A DNA stretch of 44,205 nt, taken from an uncultured Bacilli bacterium. GTDB taxonomy: Bacteria; Bacillota_I; Bacilli_A; RF39; UBA660. The notes below the pieces were generated by a model, which saw only the letters and a list, made by a program, of their open reading frames with translations, did no database searches and was not told the DNA's origin. The stretch's first letter is position 1, and each line of letters starts with the position of its first letter. The translations under genes and the position numbers were made by a program. The stretch is from positions 1 through 44,205 of the forward strand of contig CALVSD010000001.1 in assembly GCA_944358805.1 (NCBI GenBank), read 5' to 3'. Positions 21,826 through 43,003 of the stretch are shown here, piece after piece.

Positions 21826-21901
21826 ACTTGTTATTTTGTAAAAATATGTAGATTTTTTTTTTATTTATGGTAAAATTAGATTGGGGATAGGAGGGTAATA
21901 T

Positions 21902-23266: not shown

Positions 23267-23400
23267 TTTGTGGACAAATGTGGATAATTAAAAAAGTTTT
23301 CCACAAGCATGTGGTCAAAAATTTCTATTAATATAAGGATTTTTTGTAGTTTTCCACAGTTTCCACTGTATAATAATAAATAATATATATATAATAAGAA
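23255..23400. promoter_or_regulatory. oriC part 2: DnaA boxes plus an AT-rich TAA/ATA-repeat unwinding region between dnaA and dnaN
   Basis: Boxes at 23255-23263 (TTATCCACT), 23269-23277, 23279-23287 (perfect TGTGGATAA), 23297-23305, 23310-23318, 23350-23358 and 23359-23367. These are followed directly by GTATAATAATAAATAATATATATATAATAA (23368-23400), which resembles DnaA-trio/DUE organisation. Confidence 0.8.
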
Positions 23401-24530: not shown

Positions 24531-24559
24531 TATCCACAATATTGTGGGTATTTTTTTTT
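24531..24559 (+). terminator. dnaN terminator built from a DnaA-box-like palindrome
   Basis: TATCCACAAT/ATTGTGGGTA hairpin (24531-24550) followed by a T9 run. Confidence 0.75.
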
Positions 24560-25212: not shown

Positions 25213-26310
25213 ATGGTAATAAAAAAAATTAAATTAAAAAATTATCGTAATTATGATGATTTAGAAATAGCATTAAATGAGAAATTAAATATTATTATAG
25301 GAAAAAATGCTCAAGGTAAAACAAATATATTAGAATCTATATATGTTTTATCTTTAACAAAATCTTATTTAAATATAAATGATAAAAATTTAATAAAGCT
25401 GGGGAATAATTATTCAATATTAGAAGCAGAAACAATACTAAATAATATCCCTAAAAAATTTAAAATTTTAATAAACGATAATGGAAAAAAAGTTATCATA
25501 AACGGAAGAGAAATAAAAAAATTAAGTGAATATATATCAAATTTGAAAGTTGTTATTTTTAGTCCTGAAAATATAAGAATGATTAGAGATGGTCCAAGTG
25601 TAAGAAGAAAATTTTTGAATATGGAACTTAGTCAAATATCTCCATTATATGTTAGACTATTGATGGATTACAATAATATAATTAGACAAAAAAATGAATA
25701 TTTAAAATTAGATAAAATAAATATAGAATATTTAAAAATTTTAAATAAAAAGATAGCTGAATTATCTGTTAATATATATATATATAGGAAAGAATTTATA
25801 GATAAACTTTGCAATTTTATAGATAATATCTATTATAAAATAATGGGAATTCAAGGACTTAGAATAAAATATATATCTAATATTGATTATTTTGAAGATA
25901 AATCAATGATGATTGCTAAATATACAGAAAAGTTAGAAAAATATTTAGAGAAAGAAATATTGTATAAAGTATCGTTAATAGGCCCACAAAGGGACGATTT
26001 TATTTTTGTACTAAATGATAAAAATATATCTTTATATGGTTCGCAAGGACAATTACGGAGTGTAATATTATCGTTAAAATTGTCAGAAATAGAATTAATA
26101 AAAAATGAATGTAATGAGGATCCGATATTGTTATTAGATGATATATTTAGTGAATTAGATATTGAAAAAAAGAATAATTTAATAAATTATATAAACGATA
26201 ATACTCAAACAATAATAACAACTACTGATATAAATATGATTGATGAAAAATTAGTTAAGAAAGCAAGTATTTTTGAAATAAATGATGGAAAATTATTTCC
26301 CGGGAAATAA
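25213..26310 (+). CDS. recF: DNA replication and repair protein RecF
   Basis: IKKIKLKNYRNYDDLEI...NIIIGKNAQGKTNILESIY (Walker A), GPQRDDF, GSQGQLRS (signature) and ILLLDDIFSELD (Walker B). The start at 25213 is inferred from the usual RecF N-terminus; the RBS is weak. Confidence 0.93.
   Translation: MVIKKIKLKNYRNYDDLEIALNEKLNIIIGKNAQGKTNILESIYVLSLTKSYLNINDKNLIKLGNNYSILEAETILNNIPKKFKILINDNGKKVIINGREIKKLSEYISNLKVVIFSPENIRMIRDGPSVRRKFLNMELSQISPLYVRLLMDYNNIIRQKNEYLKLDKINIEYLKILNKKIAELSVNIYIYRKEFIDKLCNFIDNIYYKIMGIQGLRIKYISNIDYFEDKSMMIAKYTEKLEKYLEKEILYKVSLIGPQRDDFIFVLNDKNISLYGSQGQLRSVILSLKLSEIELIKNECNEDPILLLDDIFSELDIEKKNNLINYINDNTQTIITTTDINMIDEKLVKKASIFEINDGKLFPGK
26294..26309. other. Noc-binding-site-like palindrome NBS-1 (TATTTCCCGGGAAATA), overlapping the last codons of recF
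   Basis: A perfect 16-mer inside a 22-bp perfect palindrome, AATTATTTCCCGGGAAATAATT (26291-26312), followed by TTTT. Confidence 0.7.
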
Positions 26311-26344
26311 TTTTAAGTAAAAAGCAATAAAAAATATAAAAAAA

Positions 26345-26360
26345 TATTTCCCGGGAAATA
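26345..26360. other. Noc-binding-site-like palindrome NBS-2 in the gyrB leader
   Basis: A perfect 16-mer TATTTCCCGGGAAATA inside a 22-bp palindrome, AAATATTTCCCGGGAAATATTT (26342-26363), 22 nt upstream of the gyrB ATG. Confidence 0.7.
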
Positions 26361-26382
26361 TTTTTGAGGAAGGAAGACAAAA

Positions 26383-28302
26383 ATGGATAATAAAATAGAA
26401 CATTATAACGCATCGGATATTCAAGTCTTAGAAGGATTAGAAGCTGTAAGAAAAAGACCTGGTATGTATATAGGATCTACTAGTGAAAGAGGTTTGCATC
26501 ATTTGGTTTGGGAAATAGTAGATAATGCAATAGATGAGGCTTTAGCTGGATATTGTGATGATATAGAAATAATTGTAAATAAAGATGGCTCTGTTACTGT
26601 AAAGGATGATGGTAGAGGAATTCCAGTCGATAAGCATCCTAAAACAGGTATATCTACTGTAGAAACTGTTTATACAGTACTTCATGCTGGAGGTAAGTTT
26701 GGCGGAGGCGGATATAAAGTTTCTGGAGGATTACATGGAGTAGGAGCTTCAGTAGTAAATGCTCTTAGTAAATGGGTTGATGTAACTGTTTATAAAAATT
26801 CTAAAATATATCAAGCTAAATTTGCAAATGGTGGTCATATAGTTCAATCACTTACTGTTATTGGTGATTGTAGTGAAGATAGAACTGGAACAACTGTAAC
26901 TTTTATGCCAGATGAAGAAATTTTTAAAGAAACTACAAAATTTGATTATGAAACTTTAAAAGTTAGAGCAAGAGAATTAGCTTTTCTTAATAAAAGATTG
27001 AGAATAATTTTAGTTGATGATAGAGAAGATAAAAAAGACACTTTTGTTTATGAAGGTGGAATAAGGGAATATGTTGAACTTTTAAATAAAAGTAAGACTC
27101 CAATTCATAATGATATTATATATGTTGAGGGTGCAGAAAATAATGTAACTTTGGAAGTAGCTCTTCAATATAATGATGGATATAATAGTGCAATATATTC
27201 CTTTGTAAATAACATTACGACACCAGAAGGTGGTACTCACGAAGATGGAGTAAAGAATAGTTTGACTAGAATAATAAATAATTATGCAAAAAATAATAAA
27301 TTTCTTAAGGATAATGAAGATAGTCTTACTGGTGATGATGTAAGAGAAGGAATTACAATGATTGTATCAGCTAAAGTTCCTGAACCACAATTTGAAGGAC
27401 AAACTAAAACAAAATTAGGAAATAGTGAGGTTAGAAAAATAGCTGCAAATATTTTTGCAGAAGGATTTGAAAGGTTTTTAATGGAAAATCCAGAACAGGC
27501 GAAAGTTATAATCGAAAAATCGATGACTGCAGCAAGAGCAAGAGTTGCTGCAAAGAAGGCTAGAGAATTAACTAGAAGAAAAGGTGGACTTGAAATTACT
27601 AATCAATGGGGTAAATTAACAGATTGTTCTTCAAAAGATGCATCTGTTTCTGAAATGTTTATTGTTGAGGGAGATTCAGCAGCAGGGTCTGCAAAAATGG
27701 GAAGAGATCCTATAACTCAAGCAATCTTACCAATAAGAGGAAAAATTTTAAATGTAGAAAAAGCAAGGTTAGATAGAATTTTAAGTAATGAAGAAATAAG
27801 GACAATGATTACAGCTATTGGAACAGGCATTGGTGAAGATTTTGATATTTCTAAACTAAGATATAATAAAATTATAATAATGACTGATGCCGATGTTGAT
27901 GGTGCACATATTAGAACATTGCTTTTAACACTGTTTTATAGGTATTTTAAGCCACTTATTGAAGGAGGACATATCTATGCTGCTCAACCACCTTTATATT
28001 CAATTAAACACGGTAAAACAATTAAATATGTATTGGATGAAAAGGAAAGAGATGAATATTTAGCAACTCTTCCTGAAAATACTAAGTATGAAATTGGTAG
28101 AATGAAAGGTTTGGGAGAAATGGATCCTCATGAATTAAGAGCTACTACAATGGGAATTGAAAGTAGAGTACTTAAACAAATTGATTTAGCAGATGCAATT
28201 CAAGTTGATGAAATTTTTCAAGTTTTAATGGGTGAAGAAGTAGAACCAAGAAGAAAATTTATAGAAGAAAACGCATTAAATGTTGTAAATCTTGATATAT
28301 AG
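26383..28302 (+). CDS. gyrB: DNA gyrase subunit B
   Basis: [47 protein letters not shown]-like EGDSAAGS and [12 protein letters not shown]-like [12 protein letters not shown]. Confidence 0.98.
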
Positions 28303-28313
28303 GAGTGTGAATT

Positions 28314-30746
28314 ATGAACGAAAATGACAAAAAAGTAAGTATTAACATTATAGATGAAATGAAAACATCATTTTTGGATTATTCTATGAGTGTTATTGTA
28401 GCAAGAGCTATACCAGATGTTAGAGATGGTTTAAAACCTGTTCATAGACGTATTTTGTATACTTTATACGAGGAAGGGATGACACCAGATAAAAAGCACC
28501 AAAAAAGTGCTAATGCAGTAGGAGCAGTAATGGGACATTATCATCCACATGGTGATGCAGCTATTTATGATACAATGGTAAGAATGGCTCAAGATTTTAC
28601 TTATAGACATGCTTTAGTTGATGGACATGGTAATTTTGGTAGTATTGATGGAGATTCAGCTGCTGCATCTCGTTATACTGAGGCTAAACTTGCAAAAATA
28701 TCAATGGAAATGTTGAGAGATTTAAATAAAGAAACTGTTGATTTTATGGAAAACTATGATGGTCAAAGAAAAGAACCCGTAGTTTTACCTAGTAGGTTTC
28801 CAAATATTTTAGTTAATGGTAATATGGGAATAGCAGTAGGTATGGCTACTAATATACCTCCTCATAATTTAGGGGAAGTGATAGATGGTTGTATTGCTTA
28901 TATAGATAATCCTGACATTTCAGTACTTGATTTAATGGAAAAAATTAAAGGACCAGATTTTCCAACCGGAGGAATTATTTTAGGTAATAGTGGTATAAAA
29001 AGAGCTTACGAAACAGGAAGAGGTACAATAACTGTAAGAGCGAGAGTTAATATAGAAGAACATAATGGTAAAAATAAAATTATTATTACAGAATTGCCTT
29101 ATCAGGTTAATAAAAAATCTTTAATAACAAGAATAGCAGAATTAGTTAGGGATAAAGTTTTAGATGGAATATCTAATTTAAGTGATGAATCAGCATTAGA
29201 AGGAATTAAAATAGTAATAGACGTAAAAAAAGAAGCAAATGCTAATGTAGTTTTAAACAATTTATATAAGCATACACAATTACAAATTTCCTATGGTATT
29301 AACTTTTTAATGTTGGTTGATGGTAGTCCTAGAATATTAGATATGAAGACAATTTTGGAAAAATACTTAGATCACCAAAAGCAAGTTATTTATCGTAGAT
29401 GTCAATTTGATTTAAAAAAATATCAAGCAAGATTACATATATTAGAAGGATTACAAATTGCTTTAGATCATATAGATGAAGTAATAAAGATAATTAAAGC
29501 AGCAAAAACAGATGATGAAGCAAGTAAAGAATTAATAGCTAAATTTAATCTTTCTGAAGCTCAAACTCAAGCAATCTTAGAAATGAAGTTAAGAAGGCTT
29601 ACAGGTTTAGAAAAAGAAAAAATAGAAAATGAAATAGCAGAATTAGAAAGATTAATAAAAGAATTAGAAGAAATTTTAAATAGTGAAGAAAAAATTCTTC
29701 AAGTAATAAAAAATGAATTAAACGAAATTAAATTAAAATATGCAAATGAAAGAAAAACATTTATAGATATGAGTGCTATAGATTATATAGATGATGAAGC
29801 ATTAATACCTGAAGAAAATATAGTTATAACTTTAACAAATAAGGGTTATATAAAGAGAATGCCGGCTGATACTTATAAAGCACAACATCGAGGTGGAGTT
29901 GGTATTAAAGGTATGTCAATGAATGAAGAAGATTTCGTTGAAAATATTATAAACTTAACTACACATGATTATATCTTATTCTTTACTAATAATGGAAAAG
30001 TCTATAGAACTAAAGGATATGAAATTCCTGAATATAGTAGACAATCTAAAGGTTTGCCAATAATAAATTTATTATCTTTAGAGAAAAACGAAAAAATTAC
30101 ATCTTTATTAAAAATAGAACGAGAAGAAACTCACAAATATTTAGTTTTTGCTACTAAACAAGGTTTCATAAAGCGTACTGACATAAAAGAATTTGATAGT
30201 ATTCGTGCAAATGGTAAAAAGTTTATTACATTGAGAGAAGACGATGAGTTAATTTCTGTTAAAAAGACAACTGGAGATAACGAAATTTTGATGGCTTCTT
30301 CAAATGGAAGAATGGTACGATTTACAGAAGATTCAATTAGAGTAATGGGAAGATCTGCTTCTGGAGTAAGAGGCATTAATTTAGAAGAAGGAACACTCGT
30401 AGGAATGGAAATAGCGGACAATAATCAAGAAGTATTAGTAGTAACAGAGAAAGGTTATGGAAAAAAGACACCTCTAGCAGAATACAGATTAACAAACAGA
30501 GGAGGTAAAGGTGTAAAAACTTTAAGCGTTACAGAGAAAAATGGCTCTATTATATCTTTCAAAACAGTAACAAATGATGAAGATATCATGATAATTACTA
30601 ATACAGGAATGATTATAAGATTAAATGTAGAAAATATATCTTCAATGAGCAGAGTTACTCAAGGTGTTCGATTGATTAATTTAAAAGAAGGACAATTAGT
30701 TAGTTCAATAGCTATTATAAAAAGAGAATTAGAAGAAGAAATTTAG
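28314..30746 (+). CDS. gyrA: DNA gyrase subunit A
   Basis: RAIPDVRDGLKPVHRRILY, HPHGDAAIYDTMVRMAQ (QRDR), AASRYTEAKL (active-site Tyr), and C-terminal beta-pinwheel repeats. Confidence 0.98.
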   Translation: MNENDKKVSINIIDEMKTSFLDYSMSVIVARAIPDVRDGLKPVHRRILYTLYEEGMTPDKKHQKSANAVGAVMGHYHPHGDAAIYDTMVRMAQDFTYRHALVDGHGNFGSIDGDSAAASRYTEAKLAKISMEMLRDLNKETVDFMENYDGQRKEPVVLPSRFPNILVNGNMGIAVGMATNIPPHNLGEVIDGCIAYIDNPDISVLDLMEKIKGPDFPTGGIILGNSGIKRAYETGRGTITVRARVNIEEHNGKNKIIITELPYQVNKKSLITRIAELVRDKVLDGISNLSDESALEGIKIVIDVKKEANANVVLNNLYKHTQLQISYGINFLMLVDGSPRILDMKTILEKYLDHQKQVIYRRCQFDLKKYQARLHILEGLQIALDHIDEVIKIIKAAKTDDEASKELIAKFNLSEAQTQAILEMKLRRLTGLEKEKIENEIAELERLIKELEEILNSEEKILQVIKNELNEIKLKYANERKTFIDMSAIDYIDDEALIPEENIVITLTNKGYIKRMPADTYKAQHRGGVGIKGMSMNEEDFVENIINLTTHDYILFFTNNGKVYRTKGYEIPEYSRQSKGLPIINLLSLEKNEKITSLLKIEREETHKYLVFATKQGFIKRTDIKEFDSIRANGKKFITLREDDELISVKKTTGDNEILMASSNGRMVRFTEDSIRVMGRSASGVRGINLEEGTLVGMEIADNNQEVLVVTEKGYGKKTPLAEYRLTNRGGKGVKTLSVTEKNGSIISFKTVTNDEDIMIITNTGMIIRLNVENISSMSRVTQGVRLINLKEGQLVSSIAIIKRELEEEI

Positions 30747-30767
30747 TTTTACTAAACTTCTTTTTTT
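30738..30767 (+). terminator. gyrA intrinsic terminator
   Basis: GAAATTTAGT-TTT-ACTAAACTTC hairpin (one A/C mismatch) overlapping the TAG stop, followed by a T7 run. Confidence 0.65.
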
Positions 30768-30786
30768 ATTAACTTAAGTTACAAAG

Positions 30787-30802
30787 TATTTCCCGGGAAA
30801 TA
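30787..30802. other. Noc-binding-site-like palindrome NBS-3
   Basis: A perfect TATTTCCCGGGAAATA. Confidence 0.7.
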
Positions 30803-30815
30803 TTTCCTGGAAATA
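30801..30815. other. Degenerate NBS-like palindrome NBS-4 (15-mer TATTTCCTGGAAATA), abutting NBS-3
   Basis: Same half-sites (TATTTCC/GGAAATA) with one central base missing. It shares TA with NBS-3. Confidence 0.45.
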
Positions 30816-30851
30816 TTTTATCTTTTACGCAAAGTAAACAGATGTTCGTGT

Positions 30852-30867
30852 TGTTTCACGTGAAACG
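30852..30867. other. parS: parS site 1 (TGTTTCACGTGAAACG)
   Basis: 15 of 16 match to the ParB/Spo0J consensus TGTTNCACGTGAAACA. Confidence 0.8.
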
Positions 30868-30970
30868 TAGTATAATAAAAAAAATGAAGATTTTAATGTG
30901 TTTTAAAATATTTATATTTATATGTGCAAGGGAACAATTAATAAATTATTATAAAAAATCTTGCACATTA

Positions 30971-30986
30971 TGTTTCACGTGAAACG
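30971..30986. other. parS: parS site 2 (TGTTTCACGTGAAACG)
   Basis: 15 of 16 match to the parS consensus. Confidence 0.8.
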
Positions 30987-31488
30987 TAATGTGGCATCTT
31001 AACATTTTGCAAGAAGAAAATTATAAAAATGTTTTATTAATAGCACAAACAAGGCGGAGCATCTACATTATTTTTATAATTTTGTCATTGCAATTTAAAC
31101 TAAACATCTTTTTATTAATATTAAAAATAAAAATACCATAAAATAAAATAAGTTGTGAATTAAATTTGCGAACTAAAATTTGCTTCATTTCTTTGTGTAG
31201 ATAAAAATATAATGCAACAAATATATAACAATTAAATATATAATATGGTAAAAAATAAATTAATTAAGAAAAAAAACAGTACTTAAAAACGTGTTAAAAC
31301 GATTGGGATATAGAATTAAAATAAAAAAATGAAGCTTGACGAATTAATTGATGATTAATTTGATGGAAATTTATTCGTTTTATGAACGATTTTATAATTA
31401 AAAAAATAATTTAAACGAAAAATAATATGAATTTGATAGGAGTCTGATTAGAAACAACAAATAAATGACAATATAATTTTTACAAACA

Positions 31489-31504
31489 TGTTTCACGTGA
31501 AACA
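31489..31504. other. parS: parS site 3 (TGTTTCACGTGAAACA, perfect)
   Basis: 16 of 16 match. It forms the core of a 30-bp perfect palindrome at 31482-31511. Confidence 0.85.
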
Positions 31505-31652
31505 TGTTTGTGTCTTGTTTTTTTTAAATAAAAATATATAATAATAGTTAAAAATAAATTTGTTGTACAGCTCAAATAATAAAGAATAGATAAAGCACAA
31601 CAGAAATATTAAATTTTATTTTATTGCTTTTTATAATAATTGTAATGAAAAA

Positions 31653-31668
31653 GGTTCCACGTGAAACA
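31653..31668. other. parS: parS site 4 (GGTTCCACGTGAAACA)
   Basis: 15 of 16 match. It is identical in 15 positions to the site inside B. subtilis spo0J (TGTTCCACGTGAAACA). It lies 15 nt upstream of the SRP RNA -35 box. Confidence 0.8.
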
Positions 31669-31682
31669 TATTCTAAAAACAT

Positions 31683-31711
31683 TTGTATAAATTACAAATA
31701 AATAGTATAAT
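31683..31711 (+). promoter_or_regulatory. Sigma-A promoter of the SRP RNA gene
   Basis: TTGTAT (31683-31688), a 17-nt spacer, then TATAAT (31706-31711). Confidence 0.7.
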
Positions 31712-31716
31712 GATAT

Positions 31717-31797
31717 TGCGCAACAATAATATTGGAAACGAGTCAGGATTGGAAAATAGCAGCTCTAACAAGAAAAATTGTGTGCGCTTATTTTTTT
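31717..31797 (+). ncRNA. ffs: Small (4.5S-type, about 80 nt) signal recognition particle RNA
   Basis: GAGUCAGGAUUGGAAAAUAGCAGCUC reproduces the universal domain IV of E. coli 4.5S RNA (GGUCAGGUCCGGAAGGAAGCAGCC). The GGAA tetraloop, the CAGG/AGCA symmetric loop and the closing U-G pair are all present. The UCC/GGA stem is replaced by the compensatory AUU/AAU. The terminal helix GCGCAACAA (31718-31726) pairs with UUGUGUGCGC (31778-31787) and is followed by a U-run. Confidence 0.85.
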
Positions 31798-31824
31798 GTA
31801 AAAATAAAGAGGTAGATCGATATA

Positions 31825-32241
31825 ATGCATAAATATATGGAAATAGCCATAAAAGAGGCAAGAAAAGCGTATAAAAAAGGTGAAGTTCCTGTTGGAGCTG
31901 TTATTGTTTGCAATGATAAAATATTGGCGAAAGCTCATAATAATAGAAAAAAAAGTAATTTAACAATAGGACATGCTGAAATGTTAGCGATAAATATAGC
32001 TAATCGAAAGAAAAAAACGTGGATTTTAGATGATTGTGAATTATATGTGACATTAGAACCATGTATGATGTGCGCAGGAGCAATTGTTGAAAGTAGAATA
32101 AAAAAAATATATTGTAACCTAACTAAAACAAACGATTGTTCGATAAAATGGTTGAAAGAGAACAACGTTCAAGTAATTAAGGATGAAACCAGTTCAGAAA
32201 ACACCTTGTTATTACAAAGTTTTTTTCAAAAAAAAAGATAG
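31825..32241 (+). CDS. tadA: tRNA-specific adenosine deaminase
   Basis: Zinc-binding motifs of CDA-fold deaminases: HAEMLAI and PCMMCAGA. EVPVGAVIV is also present. Confidence 0.93.
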   Translation: MHKYMEIAIKEARKAYKKGEVPVGAVIVCNDKILAKAHNNRKKSNLTIGHAEMLAINIANRKKKTWILDDCELYVTLEPCMMCAGAIVESRIKKIYCNLTKTNDCSIKWLKENNVQVIKDETSSENTLLLQSFFQKKR

Positions 32242-32300
32242 AACATGGATTAAATTTTTTTTTTTATGTTATAATTATCTTATAAGAAGAGAGGTGAACA

Positions 32301-33956
32301 ATGAGTTATTTAGCTTTATATAGAAAATACAGACCTCAAAATTTTGAAGATGTAGTTGGACAAGATAAAATAATTAAGGTCATAAATAATGCAATACTAA
32401 ACGAAAAAATTTCACATGCATATTTGTTTTCAGGACCTAGAGGAACAGGGAAAACAACAACTGCTAAAATTATTGCTAAAATGGTCAATTGTCAAAATTT
32501 AACAGTTGATGGTCCTTGTAATAAATGTGAAAATTGTATTAATTTTCTCTCTAGTAATGATATAGTAGAAATTGATGCGGCTTCTAATAATGGAGTTGAT
32601 GAAATACGTGAATTAAGAGATAAAGTTAATTTGGTTCCGAGTAATAGTAGATATAAAGTTTATATTATTGATGAAGTTCATATGTTAACAACTTCTGCAT
32701 TCAATGCATTATTAAAAACTTTAGAAGAACCTCCACATCATGCAATATTCATTTTAGCAACTACTGAACCATATAAAATACCCTTAACCGTAGCTTCAAG
32801 ATGTCAAAAATTTCAATTCAATAAAATTGATGACGATTCAATTGTTAAAAAATTAAAACAAATTTCAAATAATGAGGGAATTGATATAACTGAAGAAGCA
32901 ATGTATGAAATTTCTCGTTTGGCAGACGGAGGACTTAGAGATGCTATCAATTTATTAGATCAATTAACTGCATATAAAAGTGAAAAAATAACTATAGAAG
33001 ATGTCTATAAAGTAAATGGTTCCGTTTCGTATAGTGACTTATATGAATTGTTGATAAGTATTAAAAACAATGATAAAAAGAATATTATACAAATTGTAGA
33101 AAATATCGATAAAGAGGGTAAAAATATATCAAAATTTATTGAAGAATTATTAATTTTTTTAAAAGATATTTTAGTTTTTAAAAATGGTAATAAAAAAACT
33201 AAGATTGAAGATAAAAATAAAAAGATAGAGGAAATAATGATGAATTTTGATGATGATTTAATATATTTGATGATAAATAGATTAAATGATGTATTAAATT
33301 TATTAAAAACTAGTAGTCATCCATCTATTTTATTGCTAATAAATTTGTTAAAATTAACCGAAGATAAAACTCCTTCTGAACAAAATGATAATATTTCTAT
33401 TCCGGATAATCAGTTGGAACAAAATAAAATTTTACCGGAACAAAATGTACCTAAAGAAAATAATTTCACTACTATTTCTACTGATAATTTAGATAAAATT
33501 AAAAAAATTAGAATTAACAATTCATTTGTTTCAGCTTCTAAGCAATTATTAAACTTAGTAAAAGAAAAGTGGCCTACTATATCAGAATATTTGTTAGATA
33601 AAAAGTATGAATTGGCAGTGGGATTATTAGCAGATGCTGTACCAACAGTGGTAGGAAATGATGATATCATTTTAGTTTCTAAATATATTTCGTCAGCCAC
33701 AAGAATAAATGTTAATAAAGAAGAAGTGGAGAATTTATTAAATAAGGTATATAATAAAAAATATAATATTGTTGCTATATCAGAAGAAGAGTGGGATGTT
33801 GAAAAAAAACAATATATTGAAAATATAAAAAAAGGATACAAATATGAGTATATAACTGAAGACAAAAAAGAATCGGAGGAAGTTAATTCGAGCGAAAAAA
33901 CGCAAGTAGATAAGTTAATAGAATTAGTTGGCGAAGAAATTATAGAATACAAATAA
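32301..33956 (+). CDS. dnaX: DNA polymerase III subunits gamma/tau
   Basis: LYRKYRPQNFEDVVGQ, GPRGTGKTT (Walker A), a CxxC zinc module (CNKCENC), IIDEVHML and SRCQKFQF. Confidence 0.96.
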   Translation: MSYLALYRKYRPQNFEDVVGQDKIIKVINNAILNEKISHAYLFSGPRGTGKTTTAKIIAKMVNCQNLTVDGPCNKCENCINFLSSNDIVEIDAASNNGVDEIRELRDKVNLVPSNSRYKVYIIDEVHMLTTSAFNALLKTLEEPPHHAIFILATTEPYKIPLTVASRCQKFQFNKIDDDSIVKKLKQISNNEGIDITEEAMYEISRLADGGLRDAINLLDQLTAYKSEKITIEDVYKVNGSVSYSDLYELLISIKNNDKKNIIQIVENIDKEGKNISKFIEELLIFLKDILVFKNGNKKTKIEDKNKKIEEIMMNFDDDLIYLMINRLNDVLNLLKTSSHPSILLLINLLKLTEDKTPSEQNDNISIPDNQLEQNKILPEQNVPKENNFTTISTDNLDKIKKIRINNSFVSASKQLLNLVKEKWPTISEYLLDKKYELAVGLLADAVPTVVGNDDIILVSKYISSATRINVNKEEVENLLNKVYNKKYNIVAISEEEWDVEKKQYIENIKKGYKYEYITEDKKESEEVNSSEKTQVDKLIELVGEEIIEYK

Positions 33957-33972
33957 GGAAAGGTGATTTATT

Positions 33973-34272
33973 ATGAATATGCAAGCACTAATGAAAGAAG
34001 CACAAAAAATGCAAAAGGAATTACAAAAAACACAAAAAGAATTAGAAAATACTGTTTATGAAGGAAGTTCATCACTAGTAAGTGTTAAAATGAACGGGAA
34101 AAAAGAATTATTATCTATAAATATAAAAGTAGATGAAGATATTAAATTAGATGAACTTGAATTATTTCAAGATATGATAGTAGTGGCTATTAATGATACT
34201 GTAAAGAAAATTGATAACGATAAAGAAAAGAAAATGAGTAAATTTGGTCAAGGATTAAGTGGGTTGTTATAA
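33973..34272 (+). CDS. YbaB/EbfC-family nucleoid-associated protein
   Basis: MNMQALMKEAQKMQKELQKTQKELE......VSVKMNGKKELLSINI, 99 aa, canonical dnaX-ybaB-recR order. Confidence 0.93.
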   Translation: MNMQALMKEAQKMQKELQKTQKELENTVYEGSSSLVSVKMNGKKELLSINIKVDEDIKLDELELFQDMIVVAINDTVKKIDNDKEKKMSKFGQGLSGLL

Positions 34273-34868
34273 TGTACCCGGAGAGTATTAGAAACTTAAT
34301 AGAATCTTTTAAACGACTGCCAGGAATAGGGGAAAAAACTGCAGAACGCCTGACTTTTTCTATGATAAACTTTTCAAAAGAAGAGTTAACTAATTTTAGT
34401 AATTCTATACAGGAACTTAGAGATAAAATAGGTAAGTGCCAAATTTGTGGTAATATCTGCGAAGGTGATGTATGTAATATATGTGAAAATCAAAATAGAA
34501 ATAAAAAAATGATTTTTGTAGTAGAGAAGGAAAAAGATGTATTTATATTTGAAAAATTGGGAATATTTAACGGAACATATCATGTATTAGGTTCTTTGAT
34601 ATCTCCATTAGAAGGAATAAATCCAGAAGATATAAATTTATCAAGTTTAAAAAGAAGAATATTAAATGAAGATGTAGAAGAAGTTATACTCGCATTAAAA
34701 CCAAGCATAGAAGGCGAAACTACTATGCAGTATATTAAAAAGATTTTAGAAGATACTTCTGTTAAAGTTAGTAAAATTGCTACTGGAATACCACTAGGAG
34801 CAGATATGGAGTATATTGATACACTTACTTTAGAGTTAGCTTTGGAGGAAAGAAAAAACATATCATAA
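34272..34868 (+). CDS. recR: Recombination protein RecR
   Basis: LIESFKRLPGIGEKTAERL (HhH), zinc finger CQICGNICEGDVCNIC, and a Toprim domain. Confidence 0.96.
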   Translation: MYPESIRNLIESFKRLPGIGEKTAERLTFSMINFSKEELTNFSNSIQELRDKIGKCQICGNICEGDVCNICENQNRNKKMIFVVEKEKDVFIFEKLGIFNGTYHVLGSLISPLEGINPEDINLSSLKRRILNEDVEEVILALKPSIEGETTMQYIKKILEDTSVKVSKIATGIPLGADMEYIDTLTLELALEERKNIS

Positions 34869-34900
34869 TTTTAAAAACATATATTTTATTGGTGATTTAT

Positions 34901-35089
34901 ATGTTTAAAAAAATTATGAAATTTATAAAAAAAATAATAGTTTCTATGATAATAATTTTTGCATATAACAAAATATCTTTTTCTTTAAATGCAATGATTC
35001 CAATAAATTTAATAACTATTATTTTAGTAAGTTTTTTTGGAATACCTGCAATTGTAATGTTGGTGGTATTTTATTTATTAATCTTATAG
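34901..35089 (+). CDS. bofA: Pro-sigma-K processing inhibitor BofA family protein
   Basis: MIPINLITIILVSFFGIPAIVMLVVFY parallels B. subtilis BofA (HVPINLVTTAISGFLGIPGIAALVVIK). Its position after recR matches recR-yaaL-bofA. GGTGA RBS upstream of the ATG at 34901. Confidence 0.8.
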   Translation: MFKKIMKFIKKIIVSMIIIFAYNKISFSLNAMIPINLITIILVSFFGIPAIVMLVVFYLLIL

Positions 35090-35105
35090 TATGAGGTGAT
35101 ATAAT

Positions 35106-36077
35106 TTGTTAGATGATTATAAGGAACAACAACCTTTATTATATAATTTATTAGTAAATTCATTAAAAAACAATAAATTATCACATGCTTACTTGTTTGA
35201 TATAAATGATAATAGTAATGCTTATGATATTATAATTGCATTTGTAAAATTTATATTATGTCCAGAAAATTATACTAATTTAAATTCTTGCAAAAATTGT
35301 TCAATTTGTGAAAGAATTAATTCTAATAATCATACAGAATTTAGAATAATTGAACCAAATGGAATGTGGATAAAAAAAGAACAATTATTAGAAATACAAG
35401 AAGATTATGCTAAAATTGGGATAGAAGGAAAATATAGGGTTTATATAATTAAAGAATGCGAAAAAATGAATAAACAATCCGCAAATTCCATACTGAAATT
35501 TCTAGAAGAACCTTCTCCCAATGTAATAGCTATATTAGTTACTAATAACGTTAATAAAATGTTAGATACAATTGTTTCTAGATGTCAATATATTAAATTA
35601 GAAAAAAATGAATTATCAAACAATACAATAGCAAATATGTGTAATTTTTTATGTAAAACAGAAGAAGAAAAAGAAAAGTTTTTATTAATGGAAAAACAAT
35701 TAAATTATGGAAATAGTTTGGTTAATTTTATATTATTTTATGAAAAAAATAAATATAATACGATAATTTATATAAAAGATAAATGGGATTTTTTGTTTAA
35801 TTCTAAAGAAGTAATAGAGCAAACATTAAATTTGATGATAATATTTTATTTTGAAGTAATAAAATATAAGATTTCTAATAAAATTTCATTTTTTTTAGAT
35901 TATAAAAATGAAATTGATACAGTTTCAAAATATAATGACTTAGAAAATTTAATAAAAAAAGTAGAAATATTGACTGAAAATGTAGAATATTTAAAATTTA
36001 ATTTAAATACAAATTTGTTTATAAATATGATATTAATAGAATTAGGTGGTGAATATGTTGGAAATAGTTGCTGTTAA
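35106..36077 (+). CDS. holB: DNA polymerase III subunit delta prime
   Basis: LSHAYLF, CxxCxxC module (CKNCSICERI), KVYIIKECEKMN, SANSILKFLEEP and SRCQ. GAGGTGA RBS with a TTG start. Confidence 0.88.
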   Translation: MLDDYKEQQPLLYNLLVNSLKNNKLSHAYLFDINDNSNAYDIIIAFVKFILCPENYTNLNSCKNCSICERINSNNHTEFRIIEPNGMWIKKEQLLEIQEDYAKIGIEGKYRVYIIKECEKMNKQSANSILKFLEEPSPNVIAILVTNNVNKMLDTIVSRCQYIKLEKNELSNNTIANMCNFLCKTEEEKEKFLLMEKQLNYGNSLVNFILFYEKNKYNTIIYIKDKWDFLFNSKEVIEQTLNLMIIFYFEVIKYKISNKISFFLDYKNEIDTVSKYNDLENLIKKVEILTENVEYLKFNLNTNLFINMILIELGGEYVGNSCC

Positions 36078-36849
36078 AATTAATGGAAAAGGAAAAATTT
36101 ATTATTTTAAAAATGAGAACCTTAAATTACGAAAAAATTGTACTGTTATAGTGGACACAGATAAAGGATTGCAATATGGACAAGTTGTTGATTTCATAAA
36201 AGAAGAAAAAAATCTAGATATAAACGAATTAAAAAACGTTATTAGATTAACAACTAAAAAGGATTATATTCAACATCTAACTAACATTAAAGATGCAGAA
36301 AAAGCAATTGTAAAATGTAAAGAAATGATAAATAAAAATAATCTTAATATGTCATTAGTTGATGCGGAATATACATTTACTAGATCTCAGCTAATCTTTA
36401 AGTTTATTTCTGATGAGAGAGTTGATTTTAGACAATTAGCAAAAGAATTAGGTTCTTATTTCAAAACAAGAATTGAGCTAAGACAAGTTGGAATTAGGGA
36501 TAAAGCTAAAGAAATAGGAGGAGTAGGTTTATGTGGTAGAAAACTTTGCTGTGCTTCTTTTTTGAAAGAGTTTGAAAGTGTATCTATAAATATGGCTAAA
36601 AATCAATCAATAGCTTTAAATCCTACAAAAATAAATGGAGTTTGTGGTAGATTATTATGCTGTTTAAAATACGAAAATGAAAACTATTCAGAATGTAGAA
36701 AGAAATTACCTGAAGTAGGAAAATTTGTTGATACGGATGAGGGAAGTAGTAAAGTAATATCACTTGATATATTGAATGAAAAATATACTGTTGTTACTCC
36801 CAAAAATAATATAAAAGAAGTCGATGTTAAAAATGGAAGTAAGGAATAG
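36055..36849 (+). CDS. ricT: PSP1-domain protein RicT (YaaT), stage 0 sporulation / RNase Y maturation complex
   Basis: The PSP1 C-terminal domain includes FKFISDERVDFRQLAKELGSYFKTRIELRQVGIRD, and the Cys cluster (LCCASFL, GRLLCCLKYE) is present. Its position after holB matches B. subtilis. Confidence 0.9.
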   Translation: MLEIVAVKINGKGKIYYFKNENLKLRKNCTVIVDTDKGLQYGQVVDFIKEEKNLDINELKNVIRLTTKKDYIQHLTNIKDAEKAIVKCKEMINKNNLNMSLVDAEYTFTRSQLIFKFISDERVDFRQLAKELGSYFKTRIELRQVGIRDKAKEIGGVGLCGRKLCCASFLKEFESVSINMAKNQSIALNPTKINGVCGRLLCCLKYENENYSECRKKLPEVGKFVDTDEGSSKVISLDILNEKYTVVTPKNNIKEVDVKNGSKE

Positions 36850-37555
36850 ATTACTAAACTTTAAAAATGCTTACATATATCAAAACGATGATTGGTTTAA
36901 ATTTTCTTTAGATTCAGTATTACTTGCTAATTTTGCAACTATTAATTTAAGAACTAAAAAGATTTTAGATTTAGCAACTGGTAATGCTCCAATTCCTATG
37001 TTACTTACGTATCGTACAAAAGCAAAAATATATGGTGTTGAGATTCAAAAAGAAATTTATGAATTGGGACAAAAATCTGTAATAGAAAATAACATGTTAA
37101 ATCAAATTAATCTATTTAATTTTGATGTAAAAGATTTAAACAAACATTTGGGTTTTGAACAGTTTGATGTTGTAACGTGTAATCCTCCTTATTTTAAAAC
37201 AAATGATAAAAAATTATTTAATGATAATAAGATTAAAGCAATTGCACGGCATGAAATTTTTCTTAACTTAGATGATGTTTGTAGTATAGCGTCAAAAAGT
37301 TTAAAAAATAAAGGAATCTTTGCTTTAGTGCATAGACCCGAAAGATTTTTGGAAATTTTAGATACAATGCGAAAATATAATATAGAGCCAAAAAGGATTC
37401 AATTTGTATATCCAAAAATTGAAAAAGAAGCTAATATGGTATTAATTGAAGGAATAAAAAATGGAAACAGTGGTATTAAATTATTAAATCCAATAATTGT
37501 ATATGATGAAGAAAATAATTATAATAAAAGTATAAAAAAAATGTTTGAGGAGTGA
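36824..37555 (+). CDS. tRNA (adenine-N6)-methyltransferase, YabB/TrmN6 family
   Basis: SAM motif ILDLATGNAP and the catalytic CNPPYF (NPPY) motif. It occupies the syntenic position of B. subtilis yabB. Confidence 0.8.
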   Translation: MLKMEVRNRLLNFKNAYIYQNDDWFKFSLDSVLLANFATINLRTKKILDLATGNAPIPMLLTYRTKAKIYGVEIQKEIYELGQKSVIENNMLNQINLFNFDVKDLNKHLGFEQFDVVTCNPPYFKTNDKKLFNDNKIKAIARHEIFLNLDDVCSIASKSLKNKGIFALVHRPERFLEILDTMRKYNIEPKRIQFVYPKIEKEANMVLIEGIKNGNSGIKLLNPIIVYDEENNYNKSIKKMFEE

Positions 37556-37560
37556 TTTTT

Positions 37561-38409
37561 ATGTGGCAAAATAGTTATGATGGTTCTCCTACTTTATATA
37601 TAATTCCTACGCCAATAGGAAATTTAGAAGATATTACGATAAGAGCAATAAATATATTAAAAGAAGTAGAAGTTGTGTTTTCAGAAGATACAAGGGTTAC
37701 TTCTCTTTTATTAAAGCATTATGATATAAAGAAACATTTAATATCTTTACATGACCATAATGAGGATAAAGTCAAAGAAAATGTGTTAGAATATTTGATT
37801 AAGGGAAATGACGTTGCAATTGTAACAGATAGAGGTACTCCAATAATTAGCGATCCAGGCTATAAAACAGTAGAATATGTTGTGGAAAAAGGATTCAATG
37901 TTATATCACTACCTGGTGCTACTGCGTTTGTTCCGGCTTTAACATCTTCAGGAATTAATCCTAAACCATTTACATTTTACGGATTTTTAAATAGTAAAGA
38001 AAGTAAATGTAAAAAAGAATTAGAAGAATTAAAATTTTTAAAAAGTACAATTATTTTTTATGAAGCACCTCATCGTTTAGAAAAAACTTTGAAATTAATA
38101 TTTAGTATTTTTGGAGAAAGAAAAATAAGTATATCAAGAGAAATATCTAAAAAATATGAAAGTGTTTTTAGAGGTAATTTATCTGAATTATTAAACAATT
38201 TAGGTACTATAAAAGGGGAATACGTGTTGGTAGTAGAAGGCTATAACGATACCTGTGAAAATGTTAATGATTTGACAATTATTGACAATGTAAATTTATA
38301 TGTTAATAATGGAATGAAACTTATGGATGCAATAAAGTTAGTAGCAAAAGAAAGAAATATTCCCAAAAGCGAAGTATATAAAGAATATCATTTAAATTCA
38401 AGGAGGTAA
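37561..38409 (+). CDS. rsmI: 16S rRNA (cytidine1402-2'-O)-methyltransferase
   Basis: LYIIPTPIGNLEDITIRA, SDPG, and the tetrapyrrole-methylase fold pattern. GAGGAG RBS 8 nt upstream of the ATG at 37561. Confidence 0.92.
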   Translation: MWQNSYDGSPTLYIIPTPIGNLEDITIRAINILKEVEVVFSEDTRVTSLLLKHYDIKKHLISLHDHNEDKVKENVLEYLIKGNDVAIVTDRGTPIISDPGYKTVEYVVEKGFNVISLPGATAFVPALTSSGINPKPFTFYGFLNSKESKCKKELEELKFLKSTIIFYEAPHRLEKTLKLIFSIFGERKISISREISKKYESVFRGNLSELLNNLGTIKGEYVLVVEGYNDTCENVNDLTIIDNVNLYVNNGMKLMDAIKLVAKERNIPKSEVYKEYHLNSRR

Positions 38410-38411
38410 TA

Positions 38412-38975
38412 ATGAAGCTAGTTGTAGGTTTAGGTAATCCAGGAATTGAGTATAAAAATACAAGACATAATGTAGGATTTGAATTTTTAGACTATCTTTG
38501 TAAAATGAAAAATATAAGTTTTGAAAAAGAAAAATTTAATGCTCAATATGTTTTTACAAAAGTTGATGGTGAAAGAGTATTATTAATAAAGCCACTTTCA
38601 TATATGAATTTATCTGGAACAGTTGTTAAAAAATATGTTGATTATTTTAAGCTGTTACCTGAAGATATATTAGTAATACAAGATGATCTTGATATGCCTT
38701 TAGGAAGAACAAAAATTGTGTTTGATAGTAGAAGTGGTGGCCACAATGGAATAAAAGATATAGAGAAAAATTTAAAGACTAAAAAATATGTTAGATTAAA
38801 GATAGGTATTTCAAACAATAAGGATATAGAAACAAAAGATTATGTTTTAGGGAAGTTTACTGGTGATGATTTAAAATTACTTAACGAAACGTATGATAGA
38901 TTATCAAATCTAATAGATGATTTTTGTTTAATTTCTATAGAGCGAATGATGAATAAGTATAATCGTAAGTCATAA
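38412..38975 (+). CDS. pth: Peptidyl-tRNA hydrolase
   Basis: MKLVVGLGNPG.EY..TRHNVGF, and GGHNGIKDI. Confidence 0.96.
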   Translation: MKLVVGLGNPGIEYKNTRHNVGFEFLDYLCKMKNISFEKEKFNAQYVFTKVDGERVLLIKPLSYMNLSGTVVKKYVDYFKLLPEDILVIQDDLDMPLGRTKIVFDSRSGGHNGIKDIEKNLKTKKYVRLKIGISNNKDIETKDYVLGKFTGDDLKLLNETYDRLSNLIDDFCLISIERMMNKYNRKS

Positions 38976-38978
38976 AAT

Positions 38979-38994
38979 TATTTCCCAGGAAATA
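38979..38994. other. Noc-binding-site-like palindrome NBS-5 (TATTTCCCAGGAAATA)
   Basis: 15 of 16 match. It sits inside AATTATTTCCCAGGAAATAATT (38976-38997), which differs by one base from the 22-mer at the end of recF. It starts 4 nt after the pth stop codon. Confidence 0.6.
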
Positions 38995-39092
38995 ATTTTG
39001 TAGTATTTTTACATTAAAGATGGTATAATAATAATGAATTTTTACAAAATGTAATCGTTATGATTACATATTTTTGATTATAAGGTGATAAA

Positions 39093-42413: not shown

Positions 42414-42472
42414 TTCTTTTTTGTATAAATTTATATATATTTAACACAATAATATTAGAAATGGAGGAATAT

Positions 42473-43003
42473 ATGAAAACAACAGGAATAATAAGGAGAA
42501 TTGATGAATTGGGTAGAATAGTAATTCCTAAGGAAATTAGAAAAAATATGCGAATTGATAATGGTGAGAGCCTTGAAATATTTATTGATGAAGATAATAT
42601 AATTTTAAAAAAATATTCTCCGATTGAAAGTTTAAATTCTGTAGCAGAAAAATACGTTGATATATTTAATCAAGTTATTAAACATAATGTTATTGTAACG
42701 GATAGAAATAAGGTAATAGCAATAGCAGGGAATTTAAAGAAGCAATATTTAAATAAAGAAATAAGTGAATTTACTAGCCATTCAATTGATAGACGAGATA
42801 GTTTTGTTGAAAGACAAAAAAATTCTTTTGAAATAGTAAAGGGTATAAATGAGGTAGGCTATTATTCATTTAGTTCTATCGTTAATAACGGTGATGCAAT
42901 TGGTTCAGTAATAATAGTTTCAACTGATTATCCAATATTAGAGGGAGATGAAAAAATGGCTGTAATACTATCAAAAATATTATCAAAGTACTTTATAAAC
43001 TGA
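42473..43003 (+). CDS. spoVT: Stage V sporulation protein T (AbrB-type N-domain plus GAF-like domain)
   Basis: MKTTGIIRRIDELGRIVIPKEIRKNMRIDNGESLEIF is nearly identical in pattern to the B. subtilis SpoVT N-terminus. About 176 aa. mfd-spoVT synteny. GGAGGA RBS upstream of the ATG at 42473. Confidence 0.9.
   Translation: MKTTGIIRRIDELGRIVIPKEIRKNMRIDNGESLEIFIDEDNIILKKYSPIESLNSVAEKYVDIFNQVIKHNVIVTDRNKVIAIAGNLKKQYLNKEISEFTSHSIDRRDSFVERQKNSFEIVKGINEVGYYSFSSIVNNGDAIGSVIIVSTDYPILEGDEKMAVILSKILSKYFIN

Follow-up and report, generated by a model that had tools for sequence, protein, structure and literature searches.

Origin-proximal palindromes of an uncultured RF39 bacterium as probable loading sites of a Noc-type ParB paralogue

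From the viewpoint of their sequence, the palindromes described here are closest to the NBS, the sites of the Noc proteins of B. subtilis and S. aureus, which in both species are spread across the half to two thirds of the chromosome nearest the origin (PMC7383237, PMC8429893, PMC5540599, PMC4331003). NBS carry A and C at positions 2 and 7 of each half-site, where parS has G and A, and one lysine, at position 179 or 184 of the protein, suffices (PMC7383237). In B. subtilis, nucleoid occlusion additionally needs a membrane-targeting helix of Noc (PMC8429893). In the ParB-parS system, exemplified by Spo0J of B. subtilis, several palindromic loading sites lie beside oriC and are read by a protein of the CTP-clamp family, which is expected to spread. 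A further class of elements with a similar outline is that of the Rho-independent bidirectional terminators, in which a palindrome at the end of a gene is preceded by an A-run and followed by a T-run.

The stretch of DNA analysed here (the window; 44,205 nucleotides from an uncultured gut bacterium of the RF39 lineage of Bacilli) shares with the Noc-NBS system an identical 16-bp palindrome, the position of its sites close to the origin and a ParB-family paralogue encoded downstream of rsmG. On this evidence, and following the NBS sequence and specificity rules of PMC7383237, the palindromes are probably loading sites (NBS) of this Noc-type protein, encoded at 11111-12559. The preliminary description of the window had proposed this pairing, which is well supported at the sequence level by the match to the published NBS, by the specificity residues of the protein, by conservation of the site DNA across species and reading frames, and by the co-variation of sites and protein. 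A Noc without the usual membrane anchor, whose sites cluster beside the origin next to centromere sites, is unusual.

The palindromes and their surroundings

The features of the window are the following.

11111-12559, minus strand: noc-type ParB-family gene (482 aa), presumed NBS reader
21624-23358, no strand: oriC context, with DnaA-box clusters at 21624-21814 (upstream of dnaA) and 23255-23358 (dnaA-dnaN)
26294-26309, no strand: NBS 1, exact 16-mer forming the last recF codons (L F P G K stop; recF stop codon at 26308-26310)
26345-26360, no strand: NBS 2, exact 16-mer between recF and gyrB, 23 nt ahead of the gyrB ATG
30787-30802, no strand: NBS 3, exact 16-mer opening the gyrA-SRP RNA spacer, 41 nt past the end of gyrA; the parS array lies in the same spacer
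30801-30815, no strand: TATTTCCTGGAAATA, a degenerate 15-mer that lacks one central base and shares 2 nt with NBS 3
30852-31668, no strand: parS array of four sites (30852-30867, 30971-30986, 31489-31504 and 31653-31668) between NBS 3 and the SRP RNA gene
38979-38994, no strand: NBS 4, TATTTCCCAGGAAATA, mismatched at one central position and beginning 4 nt past the pth stop

The five copies reported in the preliminary description are thus present where it placed them, as three exact copies of TATTTCCCGGGAAATA (NBS 1 to 3), one with a central mismatch and one abutting 15-mer with a 1-bp deletion. With up to two mismatches to the 16-mer allowed, the window contains four matches against 0.01 expected, a number reached in none of 100 shuffles, and a scan of the window at three mismatches added no further copy. 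The same holds for the core: CCCGGG occurs three times, as against 0.20 expected, and 3/3 occurrences fall within the motif, in agreement with the earlier estimate, whose assumption of G and C each near 12% matches the 24.9% GC of the window. The gene context previously given (recF end, gyrB leader, after gyrA, 4 nt after pth) is also as described; non-coding DNA and the last 20 nt of genes make up about 10% of the window, and all three independent site clusters lie there (p ~0.001).

Some copies call for separate comment. Binding of Noc at the 15-mer is doubtful, judging from its sequence, because the spacing of its half-sites is altered. The segment carrying NBS 2 is species-specific, the window being its sole carrier in an alignment of eight species, and resembles a 51-bp duplication of NBS 1 together with the spacer. 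A promoter-like site for mfd lies 3' of NBS 4, at 39008-39035. With respect to the origin, the sign of the GC skew switches near 19-20 kb, and the distances of the sites from oriC, to its right, are about 3, 3.05, 7.5 and 15.7 kb, all of them within 3-16 kb.

A presumed Noc-type reader

The product of the gene at 11111-12559, whose ATG is preceded by a ribosome-binding site, has by sequence a ParB-type CTP-binding N-terminal domain, with the motifs GERRYKA and ENIQR and predicted CTP binding, followed by a helix-turn-helix (GKNQSTIANKLRLLNL..SERHAR) that supplies Q173, K179, N184 and R201, a long N/S/P-rich linker and a Noc-like C-terminal dimerisation domain. GERRYKA and ENIQRKDL do not vary within the clade, which also conserves the C-terminus ..YQ[IF][IV]IK. 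Its best solved relative is the Noc of Geobacillus (207 bits), with Thermus Spo0J behind it (185 bits). In the NCBIfam model nucleoid_noc (TIGR04285) the window protein scores 283 bits and clade members 286-289, as against 238 for the true ParB of a relative, all of which stay below the curated cut-off of 315 bits. The gene order in the window is rsmG, a Band_7 gene and noc; in three related loci (L134, L135, L136) rsmG and the noc-type gene adjoin or have one small gene between them.

The clade departs from the known Noc proteins in several respects, namely this score, the long low-complexity linker and position 184, which holds N, S, T or A; the best 120 homologues of the window protein all show the specificity residues QK[N/S/T/A]R. 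Set beside the Q173, K179, K184 and R201 of a cognate Noc, the window protein thus reads Q, K, N and R; no test of the QKNR combination was found, the supplementary text of PMC7383237 included. The most marked departure from the B. subtilis and S. aureus proteins concerns the N-terminus: the window protein starts MEAGKEVVKV.., with 16 residues before PNRFQPR, and has no amphipathic membrane-targeting helix there; its alignment begins at residue 26-28 of the Noc PDB chains. All of the best 120 homologues likewise have an N-terminal segment of only 14-19 residues, without the membrane-targeting helices alpha1 and alpha2, while canonical Noc proteins on other contigs carry ..FFGLG.. in this segment. 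Because the helix is absent, the textbook downstream mechanism is impossible for the window protein.

The protein also differs from ParB, since it is of the Noc type instead of carrying R173 and G201, and the N-terminal ParA-interaction motif (LGKGL) is absent. Within the lineage parS has a reader of its own, the close relative L135 having a canonical pair of ParA and ParB genes, the latter with GKSRSHITNT..SMGHAR.

Conservation of the sites across relatives

The 16-mer of NBS 1 is found at the recF 3' end of seven further aligned loci (L007, L008, L010, L011, L038, L027 and L009) and of L055 and L089. The peptide read from it there is LFPGK-stop, or IISREI where a 1-nt indel has shifted the frame, the site itself being unchanged, and both types of C-terminal peptide recur down to 52% identity among the best 120 RecF homologues. 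The block AAAWTATTTCCCGGGAAATAATTT at this 3' end is invariant in eight species, while its surroundings vary. In the gyrA-SRP RNA spacer, one to six NBS are present in six relatives (L007, L008, L010, L011, L013, L009) and in many metagenomic loci, and the central variant of NBS 4 recurs in L007 at 11319, in L008 at 8154 and in L009 at 16738 and 19727. Across RecF identities of 53-80% the positions are syntenic.

Within genes, the conservation of DNA rather than peptide is most apparent in rsmI, where seven relatives write ISISREIS with TCC CGG and thereby form a perfect NBS, whereas the window encodes the same peptide through the common codons TCA AGA and has no NBS there; in the window, TCC accounts for 2.8% of the Ser codons and CGG for 0.9% of the Arg codons. 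The variable linker of DnaX keeps ..ISREI.. in no fewer than 11 loci, and one copy of the site is read in another frame, as YFPGN. From these comparisons, selection evidently acts on the site DNA, across species, two reading frames and very rare codons. The G+C-rich core needs codons almost unused at 25% GC, which is why the sites lie mostly at gene boundaries; this placement is not due to the ending of transcripts.

Sites and protein residues co-vary at the sequence level, as seen in one NBS-less lineage: a single relative, represented by the overlapping loci L012 and L136, has no NBS in about 30 kb around oriC, and its rsmG-adjacent orthologue carries K173, K179, T184 and G201. As for distribution, 50 of the 56 low-GC metagenomic contigs with an exact NBS, among the matches listed, map to the block to the right of oriC; in this count of exact 16-mers, degenerate sites being outside it, the sites of the lineage are concentrated within about 20 kb to the right of oriC, are syntenic and are interleaved with parS arrays. 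This argues for a clustering tighter than that of NBS in B. subtilis or S. aureus, as far as exact 16-mers in metagenomic contigs are concerned.

Alternative explanations and proposed role

Both directions of co-option raised in the preliminary description, NBS turned into terminators or a terminator-like repeat adopted by Noc, are unsupported as a general property, and it is unlikely that the NBS at gene ends have a second use as intrinsic terminators or attenuators acting on either strand. The description of the copies as shaped like bidirectional terminators stands for the succession of A-run, palindrome and T-run, which is common among NBS and is found at several gene ends, but fails on energy and G-C content: the stem of a single site has one G-C pair closing a CCGG loop, single-site hairpins reach only -5 to -8 kcal/mol (-6.7 to -8.2 for the recF and gyrB sites, z -1.0 to -1.6), and no single NBS is flagged by a consensus terminator scan, whereas clear terminators of the genome reach -10.8 (with U9) and -12.2 kcal/mol (with U7). 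The borderline exceptions are of moderate stability. These are the composite hairpin of NBS 3 and the 15-mer (-15.2 kcal/mol), the sole NBS-derived element flagged as terminator-like (30793-30810), and the pth site (-10.6 kcal/mol, z = -6.0), which has the pth stop on one side and the promoter-like site for mfd on the other, with no other hairpin nearby; for the post-pth site alone, terminator activity is plausible by position and strength. The positions of the sites also speak against termination. A hairpin with U7 at 30730-30768, upstream of NBS 3, belongs to gyrA itself and is one of the stronger terminators that neighbouring genes possess; in L009, L027 and L038 translation of recF continues across the site and the gene overlaps gyrB, and in L007 and L008 only about 3-24 nt remain before gyrB, leaving no room for a promoter. 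Conserved NBS are located about 500 nt inside dnaX and inside rsmI, tandem arrays of five to seven sites occupy non-coding DNA, and the NBS do not mark the 3' ends of transcription units. The 16-mer is invariant instead of conserved in structure, with no compensatory changes seen, and among 111 distinct related sites 3 are terminator-like on one strand and none on both (dG <= -9 with at least 5 U).

Considerably less likely still is that the palindromes are sites of a different factor, or that they work as DNA structure (a cruciform or hairpin used in replication or by another protein), with the Noc-like protein uninvolved. Such a reading would accommodate the longer perfect palindromes with variable arms at many NBS and parS, which a 16-bp protein site alone does not predict. 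Palindromes of 26 bp surround sites 1, 2 and 4 (26289-26314, 26340-26365 and 38974-38999, the last a near-palindrome), while site 3 has no such extension; the probability of a 5-bp palindromic extension at random positions is 0.0036. Extensions of at least 4 bp occur at 42% of the NBS and 35% of the parS of this lineage, against 1% of random positions, and of 33 sites 28-32 have A at -4 to -2 and 23-26 have T at +2 to +4. The AAAW/WTTT flanks and longer arms of many intergenic sites are unexplained by the 16-bp recognition model. Against an uninvolved protein, the sites have the very sequence of the NBS defined by experiment, the window encodes a cognate reader at a distance of 14 kb, the specificity residues of this reader are lost exactly where sites are absent, and copies within coding sequence are conserved though they have no palindromic extension. 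Least probable of all is a MITE- or REP-like element whose inverted repeat resembles the NBS by chance. Several copies do lie within a short region, and relatives show tandem amplification (a 177-bp unit present 2.5 times in L008, and in L011 and L123 units of roughly 105 bp), but these are local duplications in tandem, with a parS in the unit, and not dispersed insertions; the copies in the window have no flank similarity beyond about 5 bp per side and no target duplications were seen around them, and species whose RecF proteins are 50-80% identical hold the sites at the same syntenic positions, some of them within coding sequence and in two frames. A MITE origin, which the preliminary description had named as grounds for abandoning the Noc assignment, is excluded, the flanks being unrelated and the positions syntenic.

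Taking the palindromes as NBS, we infer a mode of action from homology with Noc and ParB of B. subtilis. A dimer of the Noc-type protein would recognise the 16-bp palindrome through its helix-turn-helix. The A and C at positions 2 and 7 of the 16-mer, which PMC7383237 numbers 1 and 6, would be read by Q173 and R201, respectively, with K179 acting as a permissive backbone contact. Binding of CTP via GERRYKA and ENIQR would then close the clamp, which would slide onto the flanking DNA. Because the sites lie about 3-15.7 kb to the right of oriC, the clamp would coat the recF-mfd region, a domain that would also be coated by ParB from the four parS after gyrA. Since the membrane-targeting helix is absent and exact sites are concentrated beside oriC, the output is probably a function of the origin domain (organising or segregating the origin together with ParB, occlusion local to the origin, or control of replication), not classical chromosome-wide membrane tethering.

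The parS array, with four matches against 0.22 expected, is the ParB loading zone accompanying the NBS. Arrays of three to nine parS occupy the gyrA-SRP RNA spacer in 7/7 related loci, and L008, L011, L036, L039, L081 and L123 have tandem units with alternating NBS and parS. The four parS after gyrA, this interleaving in relatives and the concentration of exact NBS in the oriC block are observations additional to the preliminary description.

Noc-binding palindromes and their conservation as DNA

The repeated palindrome claimed in the preliminary description is real: the 16-bp Noc-binding site (NBS) occurs in exact form as TATTTCCCGGGAAATA at 26294 (NBS 1, recF end), 26345 (NBS 2, gyrB leader) and 30787 (NBS 3, after gyrA), and as TATTTCCCAGGAAATA at 38979 (NBS 4, after pth). 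This makes four 16-mer matches in the window against 0.01 expected, and no further copies are found there even when 3 mismatches are allowed. The degenerate 15-mer TATTTCCTGGAAATA, which lacks one central base, lies at 30801-30815 and shares 2 nt with NBS 3. CCCGGG is confined to the sites, as had been claimed (three in the window, all within the 16-mers, versus 0.2 expected), and the positions of the copies relative to genes are those first described. Codon cost in a genome of 25% GC accounts better than termination for the bias of the window sites towards gene ends (p ~0.001). No Rfam family covers any NBS, the SRP RNA being the sole Rfam match in the window, and in an alignment of eight species NBS 2 looks like a 51-bp duplication peculiar to the window species. 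Three of the four 16-mers are enclosed by 26-bp palindromes, the probability of a 5-bp palindrome extension at a random position being 0.0036. In this lineage NBS and also parS, the ParB centromere site, are commonly part of extended perfect palindromes whose arms vary: 42% of the NBS and 35% of the parS are extended by 4 bp or more, versus 1% of random positions, and intergenic NBS show the flank preference AAAW...WTTT. These long palindromes may reflect a recognition preference that reaches beyond the 16-mer, or quasi-palindromes may have been 'perfected' by template switching.

The relatives available for comparison are uncultured gut 'Bacilli' MAGs of ~25% GC; a RecF search of genome contigs returned two loci, both from uncultured Bacilli MAGs. 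An exact NBS overlaps the recF end in 5/7 related loci (RecF 53-80% identical) and in a sixth lies 48 nt ahead of it. Within the eight-species alignment the block AAAWTATTTCCCGGGAAATAATTT is invariant and the codons beside it vary. A 1-nt indel changes the frame over this same DNA: some species translate it as ..LFPGK-stop, others as ..IISREI.., and both peptide types occur among the RecF C-termini of the best 120 homologues, down to 52% identity. In rsmI, the peptide ISISREIS uses TCC CGG in seven relatives (ATT TCC CGG GAA ATA), giving a perfect NBS, with TCC representing 2.8% of Ser and CGG 0.9% of Arg codons in the window. The window itself encodes the peptide differently:

38125-38148: RsmI ISISREIS segment, in the common codons ATA AGT ATA TCA AGA GAA ATA TCT

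This DNA has 4 mismatches to the NBS, and the window NBS is found ~850 bp further downstream, after pth, in what looks like site turnover between rsmI and the pth-mfd spacer. The DnaX linker, itself poorly conserved, retains ..ISREI.., encoded as a perfect NBS, in at least 11 loci, and one DnaX-linker NBS is read in a different frame, as YFPGN. Taken together, the recF, rsmI and dnaX patterns indicate that selection acts on the DNA word itself; judged from these alignments, the NBS word is under selection at conserved kilobase-scale positions.

Folding of the sites and the terminator reading

All the palindromes had been described as terminator-shaped, with the proposal that NBS were co-opted as terminators or the reverse. 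As a general reading this is not borne out, since folding, the recF-gyrB layout of relatives and a survey of 111 sites all speak against it. The stem of a single site has ten A-U pairs and a lone G-C pair, which closes a CCGG loop; the sites at recF and gyrB reach -6.7 to -8.2 kcal/mol (z -1.0 to -1.6), the equivalent sites of relatives -3 to -6 kcal/mol, and a consensus terminator scan of the window flagged no single NBS. The clear terminators of this genome are stronger than a single NBS, and include a terminator-like hairpin immediately behind dnaN at 24529-24552 (-10.8 kcal/mol, then U9), which contains the DnaA-box-like ATATCCACA, and a hairpin of gyrA's own at 30730-30768 (-12.2 kcal/mol, then U7), upstream of NBS 3. 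Among the loci used for comparison, L009, L027 and L038 have a recF that is translated across the site and overlaps gyrB, and the recF-gyrB gap in L007 and L008 is only ~3-24 nt. Across 111 distinct exact sites from low-GC loci the median NBS hairpin has -4.4 kcal/mol, and a dG of -9 or below with a U-rich tail is seen on one strand in 3/111 sites and on both strands in 0/111. The exception in the window is NBS 4: its hairpin reaches -10.6 kcal/mol (z = -6), no other hairpin competes with it, and a promoter-like site for mfd comes next. NBS 3 and the 15-mer together form a composite hairpin (-15.2 kcal/mol) that also resembles a terminator, but gyrA already has one of its own. By the sequence evidence, then, the palindromes are Noc-binding sites and generally not terminators. 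As a point for annotation, perfect protein-binding palindromes at gene ends of AT-rich genomes may pass for terminators, and the keeping of the same DNA across reading frames and through rare codons offers a simple test for separating the two.

A Noc-type protein without the membrane-targeting helix

The putative reader of these sites is encoded in the left part of the window, next to a gene of the SPFH family:

11111-12559, minus strand: Noc-type ParB-family gene, 482 aa, the sole ParB-family gene in the window
12662-13627, minus strand: Band_7/SPFH (HflK-like) gene, inserted between rsmG and noc, specific to the window species

The best solved relative of the Noc-type protein is Geobacillus Noc (207 bits), with Thermus Spo0J next to it at 185 bits. 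Its score against the NCBIfam Noc model is 283 bits, versus 238 for a genuine ParB of a relative, and falls short of the curated cut-off of 315. Its recognition region, GKNQSTIANKLRLLNL...SERHAR, provides Q173, K179, N184 and R201 in the residue numbering of PMC7383237. The published Noc-binding site and parS differ at two positions in each half-site, Q173 together with R201 switches specificity to NBS, and one lysine, at 179 or 184, suffices (PMC7383237). The combination QK[N/S/T/A]R is present in 120/120 of the closest database homologues; QKNR and QKSR were not found in the searched supplementary text on deep mutational scanning of PMC7383237. The CTP motifs are intact.

The protein begins only 16 residues ahead of PNRFQPR, with a ribosome-binding site in front of the ATG, so the Noc helices alpha1 and alpha2 are absent, as they likewise are from 120/120 closest homologues. 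Occlusion in B. subtilis depends on alpha1, the membrane-targeting helix (PMC8429893), and the ..FFGLG.. motif is seen in canonical Noc proteins of other contigs. The DNA-binding and C-terminal domains of the window protein are joined by an N-, S- and P-rich linker of ~230 residues; the protein's counterparts in relatives have shorter acidic linkers and 324-350 aa in total. Two substitutes for the anchor were considered. Tethering through the Band_7/SPFH gene was rejected because that gene is absent between rsmG and noc in the related loci L134, L135 and L136, and 'FFPSLED' as a membrane motif relocated to the linker was dropped, as it is shared by the window and L136 proteins and occurs in 0/120 closer homologues.

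One relative informs on how sites and specificity residues vary together. Its contig, represented by two overlapping 21-kb loci (L012/L136), covers ~30 kb around oriC and holds no NBS there, even at 3 mismatches; all seven of its parS (7/7) are of the variant TGTTCCACGTGGAACA. The rsmG-adjacent orthologue (L136, 16215-17402) has K173, K179, T184 and G201, and ENMQK where others have ENIQR. This joint absence of NBS and of Q173/R201, a single case, fits the prediction of the binding-site model. The identification of the palindromes as Noc sites made in the preliminary description is well supported, with the exact published 16-mer, a reader of Noc specificity carrying CTP motifs, conservation at the DNA level and co-variation of site and residues.

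Clustering with parS and possible functions

The window has a G+C content of 24.9% and includes the chromosomal origin, with a sign change of GC skew near 19-20 kb. The gene order is dnaA, dnaN, ComK-like ORF, recF, gyrB, gyrA, SRP RNA, tadA, dnaX, ybaB, recR, holB, ricT, trmN-like, rsmI, pth and mfd. The elements relevant to the origin are the following:

21624-21814 and 23255-23358: DnaA-box clusters
30852-30867, 30971-30986, 31489-31504 and 31653-31668: four parS (TGTTTCACGTGAAAC[GA]; the last with 2 mismatches), after NBS 3

These parS, unmentioned in the preliminary description, compare with 0.22 expected and are all housed in the non-coding 960-bp gyrA-SRP RNA spacer. The same spacer contains 3-9 parS in each of seven related loci (7/7), with NBS either at its head or alternating with parS in tandem units of 105-200 bp. 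In L008 the NBS/parS unit has 177 bp and is repeated 2.5 times, L011 has five alternating pairs of ~105 bp each, and similar arrays occur in L036, L039, L081 and L123. Long perfect palindromes enclose two of the parS, in the segments 31481-31525 and 30962-30996: the one at 31481-31512 (-17 kcal/mol, then U8) has a promoter-like site upstream at 31449-31477, and the one around 30971 folds at -16.8 kcal/mol. Several parS have a T-run upstream and an A-run downstream, the wrong orientation for a terminator. A canonical ParA/ParB pair is not found inside the window; the close relative L135 carries canonical ParA and ParB, the latter with an LGKGL N-terminus, R173 and G201, which indicates that parS has its own reader in the lineage.

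Scanning metagenomes for the exact 16-mer gave at least 120 contigs, which were split at GC 0.32 into 56 (at or below) and 64. Among the listed contigs with GC <=0.32, 50/56 map to the block right of oriC (recF end, gyrA spacer, dnaX, rsmI/pth, mfd) and one further contig to jag/mnmE. Placement near origin genes is seen in only 7/64 listed higher-GC contigs, and in these seven the site mostly falls within the noc gene or next to it. The higher-GC contigs are an unclean baseline, since in a collection of this size some matches in non-Firmicutes are expected by chance. Four loci from higher-GC Firmicutes with a canonical Noc bearing the membrane-targeting helix (L020, L043, L059 and L116) have an exact NBS in or just beside noc, to which parS within spo0J is the analogue. 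In L134 and L135 the 10 kb on each side of noc contain neither NBS nor parS, and the window's left 26 kb likewise hold none.

Noc is the classic example of a duplicated ParB that acquired both another DNA specificity and another function, the tethering of chromosome to membrane that blocks division. By homology, the Noc-type protein would load site-specifically at NBS, undergo CTP-dependent clamp closure and then slide over several kilobases. Coverage by S. aureus Noc is 8-10 kb per site (PMC5540599). The recF-mfd region would be coated jointly by the Noc-type protein and by ParB from the adjoining parS. The absence of the anchor and the restriction of sites to the origin make classical chromosome-wide occlusion an unlikely output. 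Candidate outputs are origin organisation or segregation alongside ParB, an occlusion effect local to the origin, as has been discussed for Spo0J and Noc (PMC6852036), and control of replication, which has been reported for S. aureus Noc (PMC5540599).

As a tentative proposal that may well prove wrong, the clade's Noc paralogue could be a second origin-restricted ParB-like CTP clamp with Noc specificity and no membrane helix, rather than a membrane-tethering occlusion factor. It would load at NBS whose positions within ~20 kb of oriC are fixed and which often alternate one-for-one with parS in tandem. Such a clamp could be an intermediate of ParB-to-Noc neofunctionalisation, in which specificity came first and the anchor and chromosome-wide sites later, or a derived system for origin organisation or replication control working beside ParB. 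In contrast to the known Noc-NBS system, the variant lacks the membrane-targeting helix and has sites clustered at the origin, which in relatives are interleaved with parS arrays; no description of a Noc without this helix, or of NBS/parS arrays, was found in the literature searched. The lineage appears to uncouple the two innovations of Noc, keeping specificity and sites under strong selection, with the anchor absent and the sites beside the centromere. If confirmed, it would provide a natural system for what an anchorless Noc-type clamp does, for the order in which the innovations arose, and for how two paralogous CTP clamps share DNA without cross-loading.

Three further genes of the region deserve mention:

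19806-21560, plus strand: HerA/DUF87-type ATPase gene, between rpmH and dnaA
24640-25110, plus strand: ComK-like ORF, between dnaN and recF
42461-43003, plus strand: SpoVT/AbrB-like regulator

The ATPase gene has the same position in most relatives; L135 instead has parA and parB flanking rpmH there. The ComK-like ORF has no NCBIfam match in the window, and its orthologue in every relative examined contains the ComK domain of Pfam; B. subtilis has yaaA/rlbA at this position. SpoIIR and BofA genes are present in relatives (L134, L135) and, with the SpoVT/AbrB-like regulator, indicate that sporulation-related genes persist in these small genomes of 25% GC.
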